From the NCBI GenBank assembly GCA_051294375.1, contig CM119265.1, forward strand, positions 21,638,278 to 21,702,277: a stretch of DNA of 64,000 nt, given 5' to 3'. The position numbers and the translations under genes were made by a program. This DNA is from Paraspadella gotoi (taxonomy: Eukaryota; Animalia; Chaetognatha). The notes beneath the pieces are model-generated. The model was not told where the DNA came from. It ran no database searches and worked only from the letters and a program-made list of their open reading frames with translations. Below, piece by piece: positions 1 to 38,119 of this stretch (the first letter of the stretch is position 1; each line of letters starts with the position of its first letter).

Positions 1-38119
<38,119 letters not shown>

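Follow-up and report, generated by a model that had tools for sequence, protein, structure and literature searches.

In the gene for an inner-arm dynein heavy chain of Paraspadella gotoi, a genuine, expressed coding microexon of 18 nt was confirmed at 4463..4446 on the minus strand of the window, the window being the whole stretch of 64,000 nucleotides analyzed here. The gene is of the DNAH6 type, and the microexon encodes the hexapeptide D-K-K-Y-S-K within the microtubule-binding domain (MTBD), in the loop between helices H2 and H3. I favor, with modest confidence, the view that the microexon is mostly included and provides a six-residue H2-H3 extension, a short basic flap-like loop that probably adds electrostatic contacts with tubulin. 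The features of the locus are as follows.

1..28327, minus strand: DNAH6-type axonemal dynein heavy-chain gene, collinear with DNAH6 and running past the start of the window.
4614..4849, minus strand: exon B, encoding the end of stalk CC1 and H1 and H2 of the MTBD; its last 2 nt are the AA of a Lys codon.
4464..4613, minus strand: upstream sub-intron of 150 nt, with the donor GTGGGT, a (GAAA)n array, and the pyrimidine tract and CAG acceptor of the microexon.
4446..4463, minus strand: 18-nt microexon, phase 2 in and phase 2 out, encoding D-K-K-Y-S-K between GAK and TDW.
4328..4445, minus strand: downstream sub-intron of 118 nt, with the donor GTGAGT at 4445-4440 and the acceptor ...ctaatcttag.
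4082..4327, minus strand: exon C, encoding H3-H6 of the MTBD and the start of CC2, and ending in ...EPKRQ.

Read on the minus strand, the 3′ end of exon B at 4614 is ...GGC GCC AA followed by the donor GTGGGT. The microexon has ttttttctgggttacag directly 5′ and GTGAGT directly 3′, and exon C begins at 4327 directly after ...ctaatcttag. The in-phase product across the microexon is ...ILVGA-K-DKKYS-K-TDWATAK. The initial annotation had proposed 18 nt in the correct phase between near-consensus splice sites, and both its coordinates and the DKKYSK peptide proved exact. The microexon is not longer than 51 nt and its length is a multiple of three, so that the reading frame is kept if it is skipped. 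It is A-rich, as is its intron, and the (GAAA)n array occupies 4504-4600 inside the upstream sub-intron. The two sub-introns beside the microexon (150 and 118 nt) are similar in size to six neighboring introns of the dynein gene, which are 83-141 nt in length. Long GAAA-type and GA/CT-type microsatellites were also observed in the window (4504-4600, about 10900-11060, 33200-33500, and 34400-34700), and two GAAA arrays lie within dynein introns. Both strands of the 64-kb window were scanned for a pseudo-exon pattern consisting of a Y-rich tract, YAG, 6-51 nt in multiples of three, and GTRAGT. The pattern occurred seven times in 128 kb (both strands), corresponding to approximately 0.016 expected per 286-nt intron.

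Is the microexon transcribed? Three public sequencing runs, X1 to X3, were seen as assembled contigs, which omit minor isoforms and give no local depth. Run X1 contains 58% of the sampled words from window 2200-4500. Its record 1, a spliced contig of 5,904 nt, matches the window with 0 mismatches and derives from the same species; the run may even come from the same sample as the genome assembly. The contig omits eight introns with CT..AC ends, which are GT..AG on the minus strand. Since it is spliced at these eight GT-AG introns, X1 was taken as RNA-derived. In record 1, exon C lies at positions 1262-1507 and exon B at 1526-1759, leaving exactly 18 letters between them. The loose end of the alignment at 4614 (30 letters) is the reverse complement of the microexon together with the opening 12 letters of exon C. 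The two junctions to be expected from the annotation, 4614>4463 and 4446>4327, are therefore both present with 0 mismatches in record 1, that is, in a contig and not in reads. The depth of X1 in the bin 4433-4500 was 64.7, which equals 244.4 x 18/68. A contig of the skip form was found neither among the X1 contigs nor among the X2 contigs. With one contig per species, I infer that inclusion is the predominant, perhaps constitutive form in Paraspadella gotoi. Other, deeper contigs of X1 (3,496 nt) and X2 (11,270 nt) align at 4246-4290 and 4730-4798 with less than 90% identity, and these are most likely paralogous dynein heavy-chain mRNAs.

The assignment of the host gene to DNAH6 was supported by two kinds of alignment. 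In a tblastn search with full-length DNAH6 proteins, 46 segments were obtained in collinear order between 28327 and 3 of the window, with approximately 60% identity. They span residues 198-3615 of a 4,218-aa DNAH6, as expected of a complete dynein motor, and the C-terminal end lies beyond the window. Against the PDB, the top three matches of exons B and C are DNAH6 (human, mouse-type, and bovine); the exon B translation matches DNAH6 with an E value of 6e-29 and the exon C translation matches human DNAH6 with 5e-33, while DNAH2 and DNAH1 are the runners-up (1e-26 to 1e-19). The named full-length relatives of the gene also carry the DNAH6 annotation. Judging by homology, the gene is a DNAH6 orthologue and belongs to the IAD-5 / dynein-g class of inner-arm heavy chains. 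The parts of Kollmar 2016 (PMC5100056) on dynein classes group DNAH6/DNAH14 with Chlamydomonas DHC7 (g) and DHC3 as class IAD5.

The dynein gene is roughly equally similar (approximately 60%) to brachiopod, mollusc, hemichordate, and echinoderm proteins. A galactose-1-phosphate uridylyltransferase (GALT) gene was found as one open stretch at 60120-61016 on the plus strand (Pfam E values of 5e-62 and 5e-36), and its identity to the best named relatives is no more than about 66%. These values suggest that the animal belongs to a poorly sampled lineage. As for other genes, an EF-hand gene (13329-14127, plus strand, Pfam EF-hand_1, E value of 1e-12) lies on the strand opposite to the dynein gene and inside one of its introns, which is 3.4 kb in length with the flanking dynein exons at about 14808 and 11394. 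An uninterrupted ORF of 874 aa (29264-31885, minus strand) is located directly upstream of the dynein 5′ end; it has an RRM (E value of 3e-14) and a weak match to the RNase_T exonuclease family (23.1 bits, slightly below the cut-off of 24). About 11 kb from the dynein gene, at 39789-40505 on the minus strand, there is an ORF for FAM92 (CIBAR family, BAR domain; E value of 3.5e-53), a second cilium-related gene besides the dynein. At 62610-63278 on the plus strand, an otherwise low-complexity ORF includes a short stretch that matches the PARP catalytic domain (E value of 1.6e-8), probably a single exon of a PARP-like gene.

Where in the MTBD does the hexapeptide lie? In the alignment, the last Gly of exon B corresponds to residue 2820 of human DNAH6 and the Asp of the DW motif is residue 2824, which is also the spacing of the skip form. 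The corresponding anchor residues are 2961 and 2980 in DNAH1, 2716 and 2736 in DNAH7, and 2807 and 2827 in DNAH3. Over this interval, DNAH1, DNAH3, DNAH7, DNAH12, and dynein-c, as well as the structures 6RZA and 2RR7, are longer than DNAH6 by 14-15 residues. According to the sections of Lacey 2019 (eLife, PMC6629372) that treat the flap, it is an insert between H2 and H3 carried by five human axonemal dyneins as well as by Chlamydomonas gamma and a-e, and it contacts the adjacent protofilament and flattens or distorts the lattice; the flap insert of DNAH7 is given there as 13 residues. An AlphaFold model of P0012, an orthologous MTBD protein 73% identical to exon C, was also inspected (mean pLDDT 92.3; helices 6-13, 20-32, 39-46, 51-56, 65-75, 82-85, and 90-162). 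The fold of the model matches the solved MTBDs of DNAH1, DNAH6, DNAH7, dynein-c, and cytoplasmic dynein. The annotation had named a position away from the H2-H3 loop as grounds for abandoning its reading; in the model, the splice junction (K36|A37) was found within the loop of six residues (33-38) that links the second helix to the third. Alignment spacing, the published flap, and the model thus agree in assigning the insert to the H2-H3 loop, the position at which DNAH1/3/7/12 and dynein-c have their flap, as had been annotated.

The insert shares with the flap of DNAH7, Chlamydomonas dynein-c, and DNAH1/3/12 (PDB 6RZA and 2RR7) the same insertion point between H2 and H3. It is also Lys-rich, and its flanks recall the base of the flap (K-x-K-K-hydrophobic ... 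S/G-K-x-D-aromatic). In the flap-bearing dyneins aligned here, the pattern is K-P-x-K-[VI] ... K-[VI]-x-D-Y-[WF]. The loop of the inclusion form, K-D-K-K-Y-S-K-T-D-W, is reminiscent of a flap minus its tip, which may reflect convergence or mere composition. On the other hand, the insert is six residues in length as compared with 13-19 in the flap of DNAH7 and dynein-c. The known flap is a 13-residue insert or an 18-19-residue loop with two beta-strands, and by this measure the microexon product does not qualify as a flap. A beta-hairpin is known for the flap of those dyneins, whereas the insert is known from sequence. Moreover, unlike the flap, it is encoded by its own microexon, occurs in an otherwise flap-less dynein class, and is confined to a small lineage. 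Since it is so restricted, the insert is most likely convergent with the flap and not inherited.

How rare is the long loop among DNAH6 proteins? A full-length protein search gave 686 matches, and the best 120 of them were examined for the spacing between PP and DW. These cover molluscs, a brachiopod, nemerteans, cnidarians, a sponge, echinoderms, hemichordates, tunicates, vertebrates, and an acoel. The spacing is 22 residues in 120/120 of these best matches, although many are gene models that could overlook an 18-nt exon; the transcript-derived ones are likewise without the insert. The statement in the initial annotation that DNAH6 has a short loop was thus borne out. The skip form of the gene in the window also has 22 residues, equal to the loop length of its orthologue, the MTBD of DNAH6 / Chlamydomonas dynein g (DHC7; PDB 8J07 chain g5, 9FQR, and 9D2F). 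In contrast to these flap-less proteins, the expressed inclusion form has 28 residues, a length shared by 0/120 of the orthologues listed. The long loop is a variant feature and no argument against DNAH6 orthology. In a search with exon C (102 matches, proteins of 143-2000 aa), no six-residue insert was found in the junction-spanning matches, which were placed by pattern. The sole longer loop in that search, in P0058, looks like intron read-through.

The surrounding intron was also traced outside Paraspadella. Nine metagenome loci were compared. The loop is short in L001 and L002. The genomic loci L004 and L006/L007 have an intron at the same codon, and no homologous microexon was seen in these introns upon inspection by eye. 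The Lys codon before T-D-W (window 4327/4328) is interrupted by a phase-2 intron, which recurs at the same place in genomic contigs of distant animals (L004:1485 and L006:1940). Genomic ORFs of other animals that open with R-T-D-W (P0001, P0003, P0007, P0018, and P0033) have the same intron position. By sequence comparison, the intron is old, and the microexon within it is a young, lineage-restricted addition. Its origin is most simply explained by exonization of A-rich intron sequence. Another DNAH6-like locus, the 12.7-kb transcript-like contig L003, has four extra residues in the H2-H3 loop at 1900-2010 (K-T-G-N-Q-V-D-W). Thus, small inserts have arisen in this loop more than once.

Run X2 derives from another species. 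It differs from the window at 18 positions over 173 nt of exon B and at 44 over 243 nt of exon C, and the nucleotide identity of its flanking exons to the window is about 82-90%. Its downstream contig opens with 21 letters before exon C position 4323, which read E-K-K-Y-S-K-T and continue into D-W. The contig includes 17 of the 18 microexon letters. Three of them are changed relative to the window, each in the third position of its codon; two of these changes are synonymous and one is a D>E replacement, leaving five of the six residues unchanged (EKKYSK and DKKYSK). The first and second codon positions of the microexon show 0/11 changes. By hand arithmetic, all 18 differences in exon B are also at third codon positions, and 31-54% of the third codon positions are changed in exons B and C. 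If the microexon were unconstrained, the chance of 0/11 changes at such a rate would be about 0.02 or less. Since the frame, the splice junction, and five of six residues are kept despite this third-position change, the comparison argues for purifying selection on the hexapeptide.

Run X3 derives from a third species with 31 differences in 239 nt of exon B, a divergence similar to that of X2. In its contig, exon B is joined straight to exon C, which is the skip form. By the evidence of contigs, therefore, the inclusion form is expressed in two species (X1 and X2) and the skip form in the third. Since X3 expresses a form without the microexon, the insert is not essential to the motor.

What might the insert do? 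The hexapeptide (D/E)KKYSK has three Lys and one Asp/Glu, with a net charge of +2, plus a Tyr and a Ser. It would lengthen the H2-H3 loop on the face of the MTBD directed toward the neighboring protofilament, and the enlarged basic loop would form a short flap-like extension. Such an extension would most likely make extra electrostatic contacts with the acidic tubulin surface or with the C-terminal tails of tubulin, and the microtubule affinity would be raised or tuned in this way. The longer-loop structure, the tubulin contact, and any effect on motility are predictions. The six residues amount to less than half of a flap insert, and the loop may fall short of the neighboring protofilament. 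The Lys codons may also have come from plain exonization of an A-rich intron, so that the likeness to the flap base would be compositional.

A different possibility, the one raised by the initial annotation, is a regulated splicing switch, in which one gene makes flap-less and mini-flap motors according to tissue or stage (for example, in sperm versus epithelial cilia) and thereby changes microtubule affinity. The sensitivity to glutamylated tubulin tails that the annotation also suggested would be a further conjecture. I regard this as possible but on the unlikely side. As noted above, skipping of 18 nt preserves the frame, and X3 expresses the precise skip junction, but the genome of that species may simply be without the exon. 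The upstream contig of X2 extends to the final base of exon B and no further, and its downstream counterpart begins at base 2 of the microexon; a branch in the assembly graph could cause such a break, although low depth (5-8x) explains it equally well. The lack of skip contigs in X1 and X2 speaks against the switch, with the proviso that minor isoforms would be invisible in contigs either way. A UGC near the 3′ splice site on its upstream side is the motif of SRRM4-type regulated microexons, and no TGC (UGC) is present in the 40 nt upstream of the microexon (4503..4464).

Could the hexapeptide instead be neutral, a piece of exonized intron that is tolerated in a surface loop with no functional effect? 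The loop does tolerate variation, as the four extra residues at the same place in L003 and the insert-less product of X3 indicate, and the exon is A-rich like its intron. Nevertheless, neutrality is improbable in view of the X2 sequence, in which the frame, the splice junction, and five of six residues have been kept and the only changes are two synonymous ones and one D>E.

Phosphorylation of the Ser might cancel the charge of the loop and free its contacts with tubulin, an idea that is compatible with either the flap-like or the switch reading. The pattern [RK][RK]x[ST] is typical of basophilic kinases. K-K-Y-S fits it, and K-K-Y-S-K is identical in both exon-bearing species, but this is a pattern match only. 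A 2025 preprint on the phosphorylation of axonemal heavy chains, in the portions that describe site positions, places PKA sites in N-terminal regions or in AAA5 and mentions no MTBD site. A phospho-regulated loop is given little weight, slightly less than neutrality. Finally, a chance look-alike or an assembly artefact, for which the seven occurrences of the bare pattern in 128 kb might be cited, is extremely improbable given the exact three-exon join with 0 mismatches in a 5.9-kb spliced contig and the recurrence of the microexon in the second species.

The preferred reading thus remains an expressed, mostly included microexon that probably yields a short basic flap-like loop. Coding microexons of animals are 3-51 nt in length, preserve the frame, and encode parts of surface loops, the neuronal SRRM4-dependent class being the best studied. 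The microexon found here is like them in its size, its keeping of the frame, its location in a surface loop by an interaction surface, and its conservation at the peptide level. Unlike the SRRM4 class, it resides in a ciliary motor gene and is without the UGC motif upstream. Literature searches found no report of a microexon or an alternative exon in a dynein MTBD. The sections of Kollmar 2016 (PMC5100056) that touch on the subject speak of alternative splice forms in dynein motor domains in general terms only. As to the role of the flap, the relevant part of Lacey 2019 (PMC6629372) proposes that it distorts the microtubule lattice and perhaps aids communication between dyneins.

The finding has a practical side in that gene models of dynein heavy chains can overlook 18-nt exons at a functional interface. 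For the dynein family, a flap-less DNAH6 class with an independently gained, conserved, short basic insert at the flap site represents a minimal natural variant, one that can be compared with its own skip form as expressed by the related species of X3. If the exon is regulated, cilia can tune the track-binding surface of a motor through splicing. In its fullest version, which I consider rather unlikely, a microexon under tissue or stage control would add or remove a basic, flap-like loop, open to phosphorylation, at the microtubule-binding tip of an inner-arm dynein. If that were true, it would be the first case of alternative splicing that tunes the microtubule interface of a dynein, and nature would have provided an experiment on what the flap does.
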